Shown: positions 777 through 37,861 of the stretch, in pieces
Layout: every line of letters starts with the position of its first letter
Position numbering within the stretch: the first letter of the stretch is position 1
DNA from: a virus
Direction: 5' to 3' (one strand)
Length of the DNA stretch: 37,911 nucleotides
UHGV virus genome: UHGV-0078433
Made by a program: the position numbers and the translations under genes
The notes under the pieces: model-generated
The model's database searches: none
Seen by the model: the letters and a program-made list of their open reading frames with translations, nothing else
What the model was told of the DNA's origin: nothing

Positions 777-2606
777 TTACACCTGACCAAGGTCCTCTAC
801 GCTTTCCTGATCATTCAGCAAGGTAATGGCAACAGCAATTGAGGAGAGGATAGTTTTGATTTCTATGGTGTTCATCCCTTCCTTTTCCCGGACGTACTCG
901 CATAATTTATCGACGTCAAATATCTCTCTGATGTTTGTATATTCGGCGGCTCTTTCAAGCAAGTGCACGATTTCTTCTCGCTGACCTTCGACAAATTGAG
1001 CCTGCCATGCTTGCACAGACCTTGGCGTGAATTTAACCCCGCTATCATAAGGAGCATCTGCGATATCAAGGCCAAATCTACCCTGCAATGATTTATCCCA
1101 TGTCGCATTCAAAAATGGCAGAGAAACTAATTCAGGAGCCAGCTTTGCCATGACGCTGTAGTGGAACAATTCTTTGTTCCTGGCCTCCGGACTGAGCTTG
1201 AATACCAAACGCGCAACTTTAGGAGAGAGAAGTGGCATCAGTTTAATTCTGCCTGTGACGTTCTGAGCAAGAGGGCCGTTCCAATTGGAAAGACGGTTTT
1301 CTACGAAGAACTTCTCAGGTAAAACATCAAACCTTACAGATTTAATATTCTCCTCAAGCCAGCCGTAGAACCAACCTATTTGAGCGTTTTTATACAAACT
1401 GGAGAGAATGTTTAATGGATCCATCTTCTGATGGTAGTTTATGAACTTAGAAAGAATTGCATCTTTATTGTCCATAAAGGACAGGTTTTTAAACTGCTTG
1501 GCGTGTCCGCCGGGTCCGCGATATAGCTCGCCGCCAAAGCCAGTCATATCGGACGTTATATTTTTGATGGTGCGTTCAGCTGTTGCTCCATCCCATGGGC
1601 AAATATAACTTTCCATTCTGTAGGAATGCCAGTTAAGTTTTTCCCATGAATTAGCAAAATCCTGAGCTTTAACTTGTGGAGCCTTAACGTTAGCGACGTG
1701 CTTAACGCCGATTTTGCTGGCTATGTTCTGAGCGCAACTTATCTCCGGGCTTCCTTCCGGTCCGTTCGTAAATGTGGTAATCCTGTCTTTGAATCCTGCA
1801 CCCAATGCCAGTGCAAGGACAAGACGAGAGTCCTTACCACCGGTCAGTGATAAGCGGAGTTCACCGGGAATGTTTTCACTCGCAGCCTTAAAGTTTTTCA
1901 CCAATTCATCTACGATCAAATCCCAGTCATCACCTGAAAGGTCATTTAGATATTCAGCATCCTCACTTGAAGGCCAGATCTGATTCTTAAATTTATTGAT
2001 ATTTACTGTTGTTGAACCGATTGGTGACTTTAAATAGCTACCTGCCGTGATTGTATTTACACCTTCAAATGGTGTTTCATTTCCAAATATATTGGCATGC
2101 CCAATCAACCAGCTCAATGAGGAAAGGTTATATTTACCATTGCCTCGTAATTCATGTAATGCAGATGCTCTGTTACTTACGCAGGTCACACCATCAATTA
2201 TTGTGTAATAAATAGGACAGGTGCCTGAGAAATCGCCGAAAGCAAGGAGGCCATTCTTGGAGGTTATTGAAACGAAGTTGTAAGACCCGGAAATATTGTC
2301 AAACATGTATTCCGCATCGTTTTTTGTGGAGGCATCAAGTGCGGCGTCAGACACGTCATAGCTATCCCCCATCCTTAAAACAGGGCCATTTATCAGGCAT
2401 ACGCCGCTTTGCTTAGATGTTATTCTTTTTGATATTTCGCCTTCCGCATTGCCACATGCTGTATATGCCCAAGCTCCGCTACCAGATATTTTATTAGCCA
2501 CCTCTACTGGCTTAAATGTTAAGTTCCTTTTTAGGGCCTGCTGCGCTGTCTCGTATAATTTCTTAACAGACTCGCTTTTTCCATTTAAAACAATAAAGTT
2601 TATCAT
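777..2606 (-). CDS. Asparagine synthetase (AsnB)-family PP-loop protein with GATase-like N-domain lacking the N-terminal Cys nucleophile
   Basis: 609-aa ORF; PP-loop LSLTGGKDS; AsnB-like motifs GDFSGTCPIYYT and AGSYL; residue 2 is Ile not Cys; visibly AT-rich versus neighbours. Confidence 0.8.
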   Translation of the reverse strand: MINFIVLNGKSESVKKLYETAQQALKRNLTFKPVEVANKISGSGAWAYTACGNAEGEISKRITSKQSGVCLINGPVLRMGDSYDVSDAALDASTKNDAEYMFDNISGSYNFVSITSKNGLLAFGDFSGTCPIYYTIIDGVTCVSNRASALHELRGNGKYNLSSLSWLIGHANIFGNETPFEGVNTITAGSYLKSPIGSTTVNINKFKNQIWPSSEDAEYLNDLSGDDWDLIVDELVKNFKAASENIPGELRLSLTGGKDSRLVLALALGAGFKDRITTFTNGPEGSPEISCAQNIASKIGVKHVANVKAPQVKAQDFANSWEKLNWHSYRMESYICPWDGATAERTIKNITSDMTGFGGELYRGPGGHAKQFKNLSFMDNKDAILSKFINYHQKMDPLNILSSLYKNAQIGWFYGWLEENIKSVRFDVLPEKFFVENRLSNWNGPLAQNVTGRIKLMPLLSPKVARLVFKLSPEARNKELFHYSVMAKLAPELVSLPFLNATWDKSLQGRFGLDIADAPYDSGVKFTPRSVQAWQAQFVEGQREEIVHLLERAAEYTNIREIFDVDKLCEYVREKEGMNTIEIKTILSSIAVAITLLNDQESVEDLGQV

Positions 2607-2871: not shown

Positions 2872-5358
2872 CTACTTTGCTTCGAGATTTCCCACTCGTT
2901 CAGCCAGAGCCTCAAACTGCGATAGCAGCCTTTGATGATTACGACGATGAAGGGCAGCCTCCATCACTAATGCCTCCTCATATCGAATGCCATAGCGTGA
3001 TCCCGCTTCAACCGCCGGAACTACTACATCGCCAGTCTCTTCATCAAGAACTTCTGGTGAGCTTTCCCACTTGTCATAACAGAAGAAAGCAAACTGGTGA
3101 GGATCAAGTCCATGACGGATAAACGCTTCTTGCGCACGCTGGGCAATAATGCCGACATGCCAACGGGCTCCATCATCTCCCTTTGCCTCTATACGGTCAA
3201 TGAACTGGAACTGCACGAAATCTACTTCCGCCCAGGCATCCAGAATATCATCTGCGTACGGCGCTTCCATTAACCGTGAATCTGTCGTTTGGACGGGTTC
3301 GAGAGAACCACGAGCCAGCATCACTGGACGCGATTTTTGCCTTTCATCGGAGGTGACAGTATACGCAGCCTGAGTGAATCCGCCCGCAAATGGACTTGAA
3401 CTGGTACCAACAGTTCTGGTGTTAGCGGCGCTGGGCTGGATATTGCCGTTTACGCTCATGTTGGTGTTGATATTTACGACAGCAGAAGCAAAGCGTGCAA
3501 CTTCAGTACCGGCCGACGCTTCAGTTGATGAGACGTAGAGGCCGACAGCATTTTTACTAAGGACTGCGGTTCGGGCAAATCCACTAGAATCGCGGATCTC
3601 TCCGAGCCCAACTTGATAATCGTCAGACTGCGGGCCGGTAACGTTAGTGATGCAATGGAATACGCCACCCATTTGGTTAAACGGATCTGTCACGGATTCA
3701 AGATGAAGGCCATCTATAATGATCTTCCCGGTATTGCTACCCCCTGACTCTATGCCTACAGGGCAATTCCTTAACGTCACGTTGGTTAGTTTTTGATATT
3801 TCCTGTTCAGGCGTAAGGCAACATTGGTGTCTCTACACACAATATTGGTTACAGAACACGCCTCTGCATCACCAAACTGCCGATCACTGGCTCCGGAGGC
3901 TGTTGTTGTCTGGTATCCGGTTATTGCGTTAGCGCACTGAATATTTGATCCGTTGCAATATCGCTCCTCAATCCACACTGAAGCCCCAATTCTTCCGCCA
4001 TCATATCCGAGACATGATATATTGCTGTAATTGACGAATGGGGATTTAATATGGAGCCCGATGATGTCTGAATCAGTGGATTTAAATCGGTTCTGAATGA
4101 CTGTGATGTTTGTAACATCACTCCATACACCGCCAGTTCCACGACTGACGGTATCGCCAATGATCCCCTGCTTGATACGGACGCCAGCGCCGGGCGCTCC
4201 GACGTTACCAAAGTCTGACACATAAACGTTCGATACCTTCGGCGCCAATGACATTACGTCAACGCCTGCCCAAGGGTGGGCTGGCTCGTCAAGTTGCCCG
4301 AAGTTGAAAACGAAGATGTTATTTAATTGAAACGCGCGACTGACAGACCCATTATCCTTAATGTCGATACCATCTGCGCCGGTGTTTTCAGACCAGAATC
4401 CGTCGATGCTGCAGCCCTTATACCCGCCATTCTGAAGACCCAAGGCATAATGAGAGCAGTTCTTTACCTTGAGGCCGCGAATTGTAAGCCCCTCGATTCC
4501 TGCTCCGACAATGCCTTCAGTTTGCCGGGCGTAAGGAGTACCATTCCATAAGTAATTCCCGTCGATACAAATATCTTGAAGGCCGACGCCCCTTACTTTT
4601 GTGGTGCCGTTTTCGAGCGGTGGCTTTGACCACTGTATTACCCCATATGCAGCATCTGTGTTGTAAGCTCTTATAGTAGTAGAGTTCCATCCCTGCCCAC
4701 GGAGAATAATGTTGTCAAATGGGATGCGCAAAGCAGCAACGTTTAACGTTGCGTTGGCAGAGCTAAATTCAGTCGGATCCTGATGCACCATGTATAAGGG
4801 CCGCGGGAATACAATCGTGCCCCCGCCGGCTGCACTGAGTTCCTGCGCCTTCTGCATTATCAGTCTTGCGTTCTGCAGGGCGACAACCTGGCTAACAACC
4901 CCAGGGATTACGCCAAATGAATCAGCGGTTATTTCAATGCCACCAATTAATGACGAGCCGGTACTGGAGCTTAATCTCTGGACAAAAGAAAACGGATCAA
5001 CCAGGGAGCAATTTTCAAAATAGTATTGCTGAGCCCCATAAGCATCGTAAACAGCCATGCTGTAATCACTTTCAGTGACTATGGTTACAACCTGGCCATT
5101 ATATACTGGGTAACCTGAGGAATTAATTTTAACTGGCTGGCTGATCTGCACCAGGGAGCCATTTTCATTCCTGAAATAAACCGCTACCCTATTGGCTGGA
5201 TTTGTTGGATCCGTGTCAGGAACACCAACATAAATATTACCGTTTGCGATAGCTTTAAAGCTTCTCGGCGTAATAAATGGGATGTACGGCATTGTTACTT
5301 GCTGGTTGGCAATGATATCTGGCATTTGCTGTTCTCCAGGTGCAGAAAAGCCGCACAA
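2872..5358 (-). CDS. Tailspike: P22 gp9-like head-binding N-domain, beta-helix depolymerase-like centre, C-terminal self-cleaving chaperone (S74-type) domain
   Basis: N-terminal ~110 aa resemble P22 tailspike N-terminus (recall); repetitive beta-helix-like middle; SDERQK motif followed by ~150-aa chaperone-like tail. Confidence 0.85.
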   Translation of the reverse strand: MCGFSAPGEQQMPDIIANQQVTMPYIPFITPRSFKAIANGNIYVGVPDTDPTNPANRVAVYFRNENGSLVQISQPVKINSSGYPVYNGQVVTIVTESDYSMAVYDAYGAQQYYFENCSLVDPFSFVQRLSSSTGSSLIGGIEITADSFGVIPGVVSQVVALQNARLIMQKAQELSAAGGGTIVFPRPLYMVHQDPTEFSSANATLNVAALRIPFDNIILRGQGWNSTTIRAYNTDAAYGVIQWSKPPLENGTTKVRGVGLQDICIDGNYLWNGTPYARQTEGIVGAGIEGLTIRGLKVKNCSHYALGLQNGGYKGCSIDGFWSENTGADGIDIKDNGSVSRAFQLNNIFVFNFGQLDEPAHPWAGVDVMSLAPKVSNVYVSDFGNVGAPGAGVRIKQGIIGDTVSRGTGGVWSDVTNITVIQNRFKSTDSDIIGLHIKSPFVNYSNISCLGYDGGRIGASVWIEERYCNGSNIQCANAITGYQTTTASGASDRQFGDAEACSVTNIVCRDTNVALRLNRKYQKLTNVTLRNCPVGIESGGSNTGKIIIDGLHLESVTDPFNQMGGVFHCITNVTGPQSDDYQVGLGEIRDSSGFARTAVLSKNAVGLYVSSTEASAGTEVARFASAVVNINTNMSVNGNIQPSAANTRTVGTSSSPFAGGFTQAAYTVTSDERQKSRPVMLARGSLEPVQTTDSRLMEAPYADDILDAWAEVDFVQFQFIDRIEAKGDDGARWHVGIIAQRAQEAFIRHGLDPHQFAFFCYDKWESSPEVLDEETGDVVVPAVEAGSRYGIRYEEALVMEAALHRRNHQRLLSQFEALAERVGNLEAK

Positions 5359-36594: not shown

Positions 36595-36813
36595 ATGTAC
36601 TTGACACTTCAGGAGTGGAACGCACGCCAGCGGCGCCCAAGAAGCCTTGAAACAGTTCGTCGATGGGTACGCGAATGCAGGATATTCCCTCCTCCGGTTA
36701 AGGATGGAAGAGAGTATCTGTTCCACGAATCAGCGGTAAAGGTTGACTTAAATCGACCAGTAACAGGTAGCCTTTTGAAGAGGATCAGAAATGGGAAGAA
36801 GGCGAAGTCATGA
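36595..36813 (+). CDS. xis: Excisionase Xis (lambda-type)
   Basis: MYLTLQEWNARQRRPRSLETVRRWVRECRIFPPP... as recalled for lambda Xis; 23-nt overlap with int. Confidence 0.95.
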   Translation: MYLTLQEWNARQRRPRSLETVRRWVRECRIFPPPVKDGREYLFHESAVKVDLNRPVTGSLLKRIRNGKKAKS

Positions 36814-37861
36814 GCGCCGGGATTTACCCCCTAACCTTTATATAAGAAACAATGGATATTACTGCTACAGGGACCCAAGGACGGGTAAAGAGTTTGGATT
36901 AGGCCGAGACAGGCGAATCGCAATCACTGAAGCTATACAGGCCAACATTGAGTTATTTTCAGGACACAAACACAAGCCTCTGACAGCGAGAATCAACAGT
37001 GATAATTCTGTTACGTTACATTCATGGCTTGATCGCTACGAAAAAATCCTCGCCGGCAGAGGAATCAAGCAGAAGACACTCATAAATTACATGAGCAAAA
37101 TTAAAGCAATAAGGAGGGGGCTGCCTGATGCTCCACTTGAAGACATCACCACAAAAGAAATTGCGGCAATGCTCAATGGATACATAGACGAGGGCAAGGC
37201 GGCATCAGCCAAGTTAATCAGATCAACACTGAGCGATGCATTCCGAGAGGCAATAGCTGAAGGCCATATAACAACAAACCCGGTCACTGCCACTCGCGCA
37301 GCAAAATCAGAGGTAAGGAGATCAAGACTTACGGCTGACGAATACCTGAAAATTTATCAAGCAGCAGAATCATCACCATGTTGGCTCAGACTTGCAATGG
37401 AACTGGCTGTTGTTACCGGGCAGCGAGTTGGGGATTTATGCGAAATGAAGTGGTCTGATATCGTAGATGGCTATCTTTATGTCGAGCAAAGCAAAACCGG
37501 CGTAAAGATTGCCATCCCAACAACATTGCGTGTTGATGCTCTTGGGATATCAATGAAGGAAACACTTGATAAATGCAAAGAGATTCTTGGCGGAGAAACC
37601 ATAATTGCATCTACACGTCGTGAACCGCTTTCATCCGGCACAGTATCAAGGTATTTTATGCGCGCACGAAAAGCATCAGGTCTTTCCTTCGAAGGGGATC
37701 CGCCTACCTTTCACGAGTTGCGCAGTTTGTCTGCAAGACTCTATGAGAAGCAGATAAGCGATAAGTTTGCTCAACATCTTCTCGGGCATAAGTCGGACAC
37801 CATGGCATCACAGTATCGTGATGACAGAGGCAGGGAGTGGGACAAAATTGAAATCAAATAA
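36791..37861 (+). CDS. int: Tyrosine integrase (lambda Int)
   Basis: Near-identical to lambda Int as recalled; C-terminal catalytic HxxR...Y region. Confidence 0.95.
   Translation: MGRRRSHERRDLPPNLYIRNNGYYCYRDPRTGKEFGLGRDRRIAITEAIQANIELFSGHKHKPLTARINSDNSVTLHSWLDRYEKILAGRGIKQKTLINYMSKIKAIRRGLPDAPLEDITTKEIAAMLNGYIDEGKAASAKLIRSTLSDAFREAIAEGHITTNPVTATRAAKSEVRRSRLTADEYLKIYQAAESSPCWLRLAMELAVVTGQRVGDLCEMKWSDIVDGYLYVEQSKTGVKIAIPTTLRVDALGISMKETLDKCKEILGGETIIASTRREPLSSGTVSRYFMRARKASGLSFEGDPPTFHELRSLSARLYEKQISDKFAQHLLGHKSDTMASQYRDDRGREWDKIEIK

Follow-up and report, generated by a model that had tools for sequence, protein, structure and literature searches.

A Cys-less AsnB-fold protein encoded behind the tailspike of a P22-like prophage, a candidate amidoligase for surface glycans

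Which reaction would an asparagine synthetase-like protein carry out in a prophage, and why does its gene lie behind a tailspike? The question is raised by UHGV-0078433, a P22-like Lederbergvirus genome of 37,911 nucleotides (hereafter the window, i.e., the whole stretch of DNA analysed), in which a gene at positions 777-2606 of the complementary strand codes for a protein of 609 amino acids (aa). As stated in an earlier note, made from the sequence alone, this gene directly follows the tailspike gene (2872-5358). Here, we find that the 609-aa protein is the founding member of a Cys-less branch of the AsnB superfamily that has so far gone without annotation. We also propose, as a reading for which we see the chances as evenly balanced, that it is a cytoplasmic ATP-dependent amidoligase acting on the uronic-acid carboxylates of a capsule or O-antigen, and hence a lysogenic-conversion enzyme; the substrate is suggested by the genomic context of its relatives and the amine donor by analogy.

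Fold, family and the missing nucleophile

The gene and the parts of its product are as follows:
777-2606, complementary strand: gene for the Cys-less AsnB-fold protein (609 aa), a candidate glycan-carboxylate amidoligase
1992-2606, complementary strand: N-terminal class-II (Ntn) glutaminase-like domain lacking the Cys nucleophile, residues about 1-205; R61 and N73-G74 are invariant
780-1934, complementary strand: C-terminal PP-loop ATP-pyrophosphatase (synthetase) domain, residues about 225-609, assigned from the Pfam Asn_synthase and QueC matches at residues 254-327 and from fold matches
1824-1853, complementary strand: PP-loop L252-S-L-T-G-G-K-D-S-R261, binding the alpha and beta phosphates of ATP; G256, G257, K258, D259, S260 and R261 are invariant in 41 sequences

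The earlier note had described the product as a 609-aa protein with the two-domain layout of AsnB and a PP-loop, but with Ile at residue 2 and hence no N-terminal Cys. The open reading frame (ORF) and the motifs quoted for it were all found, at residues 124-135 (GDFSGTCPIYYT), 188-192 (AGSYL) and 252-260 (LSLTGGKDS; nucleotides 1827-1853), and the protein does begin with Met-Ile-Asn-Phe. An in-frame TAA (2609-2607) directly abuts the ATG at 2606, so that an N-terminal extension of the ORF is impossible; re-annotation of the start, which the earlier note had left as a way of regaining a functional Cys, is thereby ruled out. The protein has no membrane segment and is soluble.

Curated family models recognize the protein only below their thresholds: PF00733 scores 20.1 bits (cut-off, 21), TIGR01536 38.7 bits (E = 6e-10; cut-off, 267.1) and the macrolactam-cyclase model NF033561 30.4 bits (E = 1.5e-7; cut-off, 300). 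Scans against Pfam, NCBIfam and PHROG gave AsnB- and QueC-type signals only, with no homology to GtrA/B/C, Oac or NeuO. A profile of 41 relatives, in turn, matches human ASNS (9e-8), CarA (8e-7), AsnB (9e-5) and beta-lactam synthetase (BLS; 1.7e-3). The AlphaFold2 model computed on the alignment of the same relatives shows the full two-domain AsnB architecture (predicted local distance difference test score, 92.8; predicted template modelling score, 0.92), and a Foldseek search with this model returned TsnB9 (5e-15), BLS (3e-14), AsnB (7e-13) and CarA (2e-12). The profile and structure searches proposed in the earlier note thus name TsnB9, BLS, AsnB and CarA as the nearest characterized relatives, at 11-16% identity (the same range holds for ASNS), and sequence profiles, model and structural matches agree on the two-domain layout with its PP-loop.

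The ATP site is intact throughout the branch. Across the 41 sequences, down to 31% identity, 33 columns including the PP-loop are invariant, among them T255-G-G-K-D-S-R261, the GFGGELYRG motif, R61, N73-G74, G356..G359, R363, D396, G444 and Q448; R61 and N73-G74 we take to be the counterparts of AsnB Arg49 and Asn74-Gly75. Of 178 full-length relatives, 172 have the [ST]GGxDS motif. None of the 178 starts with Met-Cys, and a Cys at position 2 is likewise absent from the 41 aligned sequences, from the most distant matches and from the relatives at 34 genome loci. Since no member has a Cys at this position, its loss is ancestral to the family and no annotation artefact.

An exhaustive profile search among 1.84 billion representatives placed 340 clusters (at 50% identity) in the family at E ≤ 1e-30. 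None of the 41 members scanned exceeds any NCBIfam cut-off, and the public names of family members read "hypothetical" or "asparagine synthase-related" only. Our literature searches found no paper on the family, on an AsnB-like seroconversion enzyme of a phage, or on an AsnB-type ligase joining amino acids to uronic acids.

The gene is maintained as a coding sequence. Between the copy in the P22-like phage and the copies in another prophage type (see below), the ratio of nonsynonymous to synonymous substitution (dN/dS) is 0.055-0.058 at a synonymous divergence (dS) of 0.15, and dozens of assemblies contain it as a full-length ORF. The gene is thus under strong purifying selection and clearly functional. 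It was also said to be more AT-rich than the virion genes, and this is real, if moderate: its GC content is 0.431 (0.433 at third codon positions), compared with 0.488 for the tailspike gene, about 0.51 for the coat, portal and terminase genes, and 0.483 for the whole window.

Relatives in capsule and polysaccharide loci

Seven of the nine non-phage relatives that we looked up belong to polysaccharide or capsule loci, and three of the seven have a gene for a UDP-glucose dehydrogenase (Ugd) close by. Their surroundings are listed here (GT, glycosyltransferase; loci carry our own L numbers where these are needed):
Burkholderia anthina relative, 56% identity: KpsD-like exporter, ABC-2 permease, ABC ATPase, 979-aa GT2/GT4, AsnB-like gene, hexapeptide acyltransferase
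Metagenome relative in locus L085, 54% identity: KpsD, 1186-aa three-domain GT (13-bp gap), AsnB-like gene, hexapeptide acyltransferase (2-bp gap)
L085, further genes: rmlBDAC, Ugd, GalU, PGI, GT2 and KpsC/S-type Capsule_synth, making up a full ABC-transporter capsule locus
Salinivibrio relative, 41% identity: AsnB-like gene, then Ugd and GTs
Pseudomonas relative, 28% identity: GT61, Ugd, AsnB-like gene
Other loci: rml genes accompanied by GTs and acyltransferases; a multi-GT of 1593 aa; Wzm/Wzt plus a methyltransferase; sulfotransferases together with GT4

The large GT encoded next to the AsnB-like gene is homologous over its full length (E down to 0) to a 906-aa GT encoded in the group-3 capsule locus of Escherichia coli N9, the identity being 43% over 895 of the 906 residues for the Burkholderia protein, 42% for that of L085 and 36% for that of L021. 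The N9 locus itself consists of KpsDMTE, GTs, a GT61, Ugd, rfbBDAC and KpsCS, without an AsnB-like gene. The hexapeptide acyltransferase is a second recurrent partner, 52-57% identical among Burkholderia, L085 and a Paracoccus prophage (see below). It is always encoded beside the AsnB-like gene (L010, 9956-10723; L085, 11823-12560; L035, 5943-6692), the two forming a conserved two-gene module in which the acyltransferase may carry out an O-acetylation or the N-acylation of the added amine; the E. coli and Aeromonas phage cassettes are without it.

Among more distant relatives in species-representative genomes, a Ugd-family dehydrogenase is encoded within 10 kb of the AsnB-like gene at 13 of 46 loci, against a chance expectation of roughly 1-2% (our own estimate, with no control run). 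This proximity to NDP-sugar 6-dehydrogenases holds for the chromosomal relatives; the phage copy stands alone. The Ugd-adjacent Pseudomonas relatives (L019 10001-12313, i.e., P0076, and P0075) are 770 aa long, about 170 aa of which form an additional C-terminal domain.

The family extends to Actinobacteria as well. Several sulfotransferases surround the actinobacterial and other metagenome relatives at L036, L037 and L018, which suggests that these sulfotransferase-rich loci specify heavily decorated (sulfated, amidated) acidic polysaccharides. A copy 69% identical to the phage protein lies on a 2.7-kb contig (L034; JAAYVM010000031.1) assigned to an Acholeplasmataceae metagenome-assembled genome (MAG); it is probably a mis-binned proteobacterial or phage fragment and not a genuine Mollicutes gene.

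The cargo slot and the phage copies

In the prophage, the gene order is tailspike, AsnB-like gene, two small ORFs, intS and tRNA-Arg. The equivalent slot of phage CUS-3 holds neuO, whose product is a cytoplasmic O-acetyltransferase of the K1 capsule. In sibling E. coli prophages, the slot is occupied by GT2 glycosyltransferases (GN25, PK12) or by small hypothetical proteins (N9, Nord122, EC102, EC31), or it is empty (LR-28, MDK9L1). The slot thus serves podovirus- and siphovirus-type prophages alike as a place for cargo genes that encode glycan-active enzymes, in line with the view of the earlier note that the gene sits where P22-like phages carry conversion cargo. The spike encoded in LR-28 and MDK9L1 is an SGNH/GDSL esterase. 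The SGNH/GDSL esterase proteins that siphovirus-type siblings encode in the spike position (L090 6173-8287, L094 4628-6973; 704-781 aa) are possibly glycan-deacetylating tail spikes.

Around the gene, the following features were delimited:
31-2978, complementary strand: mobile cassette, 96-97% identical at the nucleotide level with siphovirus-type E. coli prophages (blastn against loci L001-L008)
50-693, complementary strand: two conserved small ORFs, of 82 and 131 aa, delimiting the cargo slot towards the integrase; they are context and not partners of the enzyme
2607-2871, complementary strand: AT-rich spacer of 265 bp between the tailspike stop and the start of the AsnB-like gene, GC 0.40
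2872-5358, complementary strand: tailspike gene, with a P22 head-binding N-terminus (Head_binding), a central domain and a C-terminal S74 intramolecular chaperone (Peptidase_S74), by Pfam

Phage copies of the gene were found in four prophage lineages, in two of which the gene follows the tailspike, while in a third (Paracoccus) it stands beside the gene for a tailspike-like beta-helix protein. The exact protein is encoded in numerous E. coli assemblies, without exception within this P22-like prophage at the yfdC/argW-intS site, and also in Shigella sonnei, Leclercia and a Caudoviricetes MAG. Besides the Shigella sonnei and Leclercia records, the assemblies with the gene include GCA_002247995.2, GCA_042599695.1, GCA_042761275.1, GCA_009681335.1, GCA_023953085.1, GCA_044384365.1, GCA_027677965.1, GCA_012469555.1 and GCA_045076545.1. 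A 98%-identical copy is present in siphovirus-type E. coli prophages (recognized by a tape-measure gene, DUF1833 and GpJ) at four or more chromosomal sites, where it sits behind an unrelated 814-aa beta-helix spike. What is shared between the two types is the cassette at 31-2978, in which the end of the S74-type tailspike gene (its last ~105 nt) is followed by the spacer, the AsnB-like gene and the two small ORFs. In the siphovirus-type prophages, the tailspike end (2872-2978; L001 9629-9735) persists as a non-coding remnant past the 814-aa spike and marks the recombination boundary of the cassette.

The third copy, with 70% identity, lies in an Aeromonas P2-like prophage between the genes for an S24 repressor and an integrase, all on one strand with gaps of 69 and 44 bp, a placement that suggests expression in the lysogen. 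The fourth, in the Paracoccus prophage, is 35% identical; it is paired with the same hexapeptide acyltransferase as the chromosomal relatives and adjoins, in divergent orientation, the gene for an 831-aa beta-helix protein.

The gene is nevertheless rare. No match to it was found in 50,697 phage records (blastn and tblastn) or in 72,556 plasmids, and a single IMG/VR contig carries it, at 100% identity. Nor did even a sensitive blastn give a nucleotide match in 5,426 complete E. coli genomes; together with the 11-16% identity to AsnB and ASNS, this rules out an ordinary chromosomal asnB, the possibility that the earlier note had wished to see checked.

The flank next to the slot (600-780 of the window) is present in 19 complete E. 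coli genomes, and eight of these (N9, 1008S19, GN25, LR-28, PCP06021, E3, EC102 and MDK9L1) are among the 37 of 5,426 with subgroup-3B, mostly plasmid-borne, kpsC/S genes, where 0.13 would be expected (Fisher p = 1.5e-13; the genomes are phylogenetically non-independent). This suggests that the lineage of the prophage end module lives in group-3B-capsulated hosts. The two small ORFs of this module, one of them named 'PH domain-containing protein' in RefSeq, are also found in further E. coli prophages, of P22-like and of siphovirus type, that lack the AsnB-like gene; as a conserved end module, they are common to P22-like and lambdoid siphovirus-type prophages inserted at several sites.

The earlier note had also assigned the gene its own upstream region. 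The spacer does contain a strong hairpin (2779-2833; 14-nt inverted-repeat arms; free energy, -31.8 kcal/mol; z, -2.6) just past the tailspike stop, and a sigma-70-like TTGACC-17-CACAAT at 2707-2679, although promoter-like matches are no commoner there than in shuffled sequence. Like the placement of the Aeromonas copy, these features of the spacer are indirect evidence of expression in the lysogen. When the tailspike was compared with deposited phages by tblastn, only residues about 640-825, at the S74 chaperone end, found matches; the N-terminal head-binding domain matches the spike of the N9 prophage. For the central receptor-binding part (about residues 130-640), none of the 50,697 deposited phage genomes offered a homologue, and the attempt to identify the receptor through homologues of the tailspike failed for this reason.

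At its ends, the window departs from its sibling prophages. It matches the argW-type prophages from position 34-36 on (99.8% to L026), the first ~35 nt being different, and its far end (36791-37861) holds a 356-aa integrase-like ORF in place of the 385-aa IntS beside the small ORFs. Because of these two differences, the integration module of the window is distinct from that of the sibling prophages.

Proposed function and its alternatives

Of the three roles offered in the earlier note, the genomic context favours the modification of uronic acids in surface polysaccharides; a role in defence, or in small-molecule or ribosomally synthesized and post-translationally modified peptide (RiPP) biosynthesis, found no support (see below). 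In the reaction that we propose, the C-terminal PP-loop domain would adenylate a carboxylate with ATP, and attack by an amine would then yield an amide. Because the whole branch lacks the N-terminal Cys, glutamine hydrolysis is excluded as the source of the amine; this would be free ammonia or, more likely by analogy with the Cys-less relatives BLS and CarA, an organic amine such as an amino acid. The carboxylate would most likely be the C-6 carboxyl of a hexuronic acid, e.g., glucuronic acid (GlcA), modified on the cytoplasmic side, ahead of export, either in a precursor of the capsule or O-antigen or in the growing polymer, to give a uronamide. As a stand-alone moron in the post-tailspike slot, expressed from the prophage, the gene would alter the charge and the epitope of the surface glycan of the lysogen; such a lysogenic conversion may block tailspike-dependent superinfection or change the serotype.

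How does this compare with what is known? AsnB-type enzymes that make uronamides have been described, namely WbpS, WbqG and PGN_1234 (PMC7468200), and the AsnB-type candidates WbmC/I/Z of Bordetella are described as glutamine-dependent (PMC2615507). WbpS, WbqG and PGN_1234 (TIGR03108, eps_aminotran_1) share the two-domain superfamily and the location in surface-polysaccharide loci, and are the closest functional analogues of our proposal; unlike the family studied here, they are glutamine-dependent. They carry the N-terminal Cys, and we know of no enzyme of this type that is phage-borne. BLS and CarA resemble the 609-aa protein in having a Cys-less AsnB fold, but they form intramolecular lactams on small molecules and are encoded in antibiotic clusters (14-16% identity), whereas the genes considered here lie in capsule loci and prophages. 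TsnB9 (PDB 7ylz), a hydroxyamidotransferase of secondary metabolism (trichostatin), is only 11% identical; it keeps a working glutaminase-type site. With E. coli AsnB and human ASNS, the protein shares the fold, the PP-loop and the counterparts of Arg49 and Asn74-Gly75, but Cys1 is absent, the identity is 13-16% and the gene is not a housekeeping one. NeuO of CUS-3, like Oac and GtrABC of other P22-like phages, is similar in position (integrase, cargo, tailspike) and in altering the class of glycan that the tailspike recognizes; these proteins belong to unrelated families and transfer acetyl or glucosyl groups instead of carrying out an ATP-dependent amidation, and the serotype conversion that is proven for them is inferred for the Cys-less AsnB-like protein.

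A more specific version can be advanced tentatively, in which the Cys-less branch would be a class of enzymes that link amino acids or other amines, through an amide, to capsule GlcA, with the phage copy acting in trans. It is possible, at the same tentative level, that the phage copy is then a lysogenic-conversion gene of a new type, carried by several prophage lineages, whose cytoplasmic product re-decorates an ABC-transporter capsule and changes the K serotype as well as recognition by phages or the immune system. The capsules of E. coli K54 and K96 both contain GlcA and rhamnose (Rha), and that of K54 is in addition "modified with threonine or serine" (PMC13410964), a modification termed "K54 exclusive" (PMC10433991), while genomic surveys class the kps loci of K54 and K96 together, as a single cluster (PMC13410964; PMC10433991). 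As described, the K96 locus has kps genes, six predicted GTs and rmlBDAC, with no mention of an amide-forming enzyme. The precursors of a Rha/GlcA polymer are exactly what L085 encodes, along with the AsnB-like enzyme. The N9 capsule locus, to which rmlA had led, was considered as a link to K54/K96 and was discarded, being of a rare subgroup-3B type (two of 5,426 genomes).

Several points weigh against an amidoligase of capsule or O-antigen uronic acids. It is a prediction from sequence and context, in which the substrate, the amine donor and the expression in the lysogen are each inferred. Without a glutaminase, an amidoligase would need a separate amine donor. The protein does not belong to the WbpS family: TIGR03108, the model of the uronamide-forming enzymes, matches one of the 41 members (E = 1e-3), and that one is not the window protein. 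Two of the chromosomal contexts are uninformative (transposases with BNR_4; LytR_cpsA_psr). The reading presumes a capsule or O-antigen with uronic acid in the strains that harbour the gene, and the enrichment in group-3B hosts concerns the flanking module, not the AsnB-like gene. Finally, the E. coli tailspikes beside the two copies of the gene are unrelated, i.e., there is no visible coupling to one receptor specificity. Co-transfer with one tailspike specificity was accordingly rejected; the spike of the N9 prophage shares the head-binding domain only.

Four other explanations were weighed. In the first, which we hold to be unlikely, the protein would serve in anti-phage defence or counter-defence, as a prophage-expressed PP-loop ATPase whose target, independently of any surface glycan, would be a nucleotide, nucleic acid or phage protein and whose effect would be to block superinfecting phages. 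This would suit a lysogeny-associated moron, such as the Aeromonas copy between the repressor and the integrase of a P2-like prophage, and AT-rich mobile cargo at prophage ends; but no PADLOC-DB v2 family matched at E up to 1, the non-phage relatives lie in polysaccharide or capsule loci and not in defence islands, their conserved partners are a glycosyltransferase and an acyltransferase, and the cassette has no nuclease, sensor or effector partner gene.

To amidation of another envelope carboxylate we give a similarly small probability. The target would be the peptidoglycan stem peptide (meso-diaminopimelic acid, mDAP, or D-isoglutamate), the 3-deoxy-D-manno-octulosonic acid (Kdo) of the lipopolysaccharide (LPS) core or of the capsule linker, or the N-acetylmannosaminuronic acid of enterobacterial common antigen (ECA). 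The arguments from fold and chemistry hold equally for these substrates, and a single moron found in E. coli, Shigella sonnei, Leclercia and, at 70% identity, Aeromonas is easier to understand with a widely conserved one; AsnB-type enzymes of Gram-positive bacteria do amidate mDAP. The genes conserved in the neighbourhood, however, are those for capsule-type GTs and Ugd and the rml genes, and not those of the mur, ddl or Kdo pathways; members occur in Actinobacteria, which lack LPS and ECA; and the known peptidoglycan amidotransferases of the superfamily are glutamine-dependent, whereas this branch is without the Cys.

It is quite improbable that the protein is a lactam-forming or peptide-modifying enzyme of secondary metabolism, akin to BLS, CarA or the lasso cyclases. 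BLS and CarA are also Cys-less and are among the top structural matches, a weak NF033561 signal appears in 20 of the 41 members (best, 1e-10), and a 59-aa ORF lies upstream in one Burkholderia locus. Against this, the NF033561 score is far under the cut-off (30 bits against 300), the contexts are polysaccharide loci, and none of the loci examined has a conserved precursor peptide, a RiPP recognition element or a protease as partner, or genes for clavam or carbapenem synthesis; the 59-aa ORF lacks conservation, and no ORF of this kind is present in the window. Lastly, a decaying, non-catalytic remnant of asparagine synthetase carried as passive cargo, as the lost catalytic Cys and the scores below every curated family threshold might suggest, is effectively refuted by a dN/dS of 0.06 at a dS of 0.15 between the two prophage contexts, by the 33 invariant columns in 41 sequences, by the full-length ORF in dozens of assemblies and by a Cys loss that is ancestral to the whole family.

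The known seroconversion enzymes of phages are membrane glucosyl- and acetyltransferases (Gtr, Oac) or the acetyltransferase NeuO. If the amidoligase reading is true, ATP-dependent amide formation would be a new chemistry by which prophages rewrite the bacterial surface, one that neutralizes the charge of acidic sugars, with a bearing on phage host range, capsule typing, serum resistance and the choice of targets for vaccines and phage therapy. The branch would also be a candidate for the genes behind amide-decorated uronic acids, an assignment that we did not find in the literature searched. Moreover, a family that is so far unannotated, with about 340 clusters (at 50% identity) and with members in the capsule loci of gut metagenomes and of Burkholderia, Pseudomonas, Salinivibrio and Actinobacteria, would thereby gain a function.

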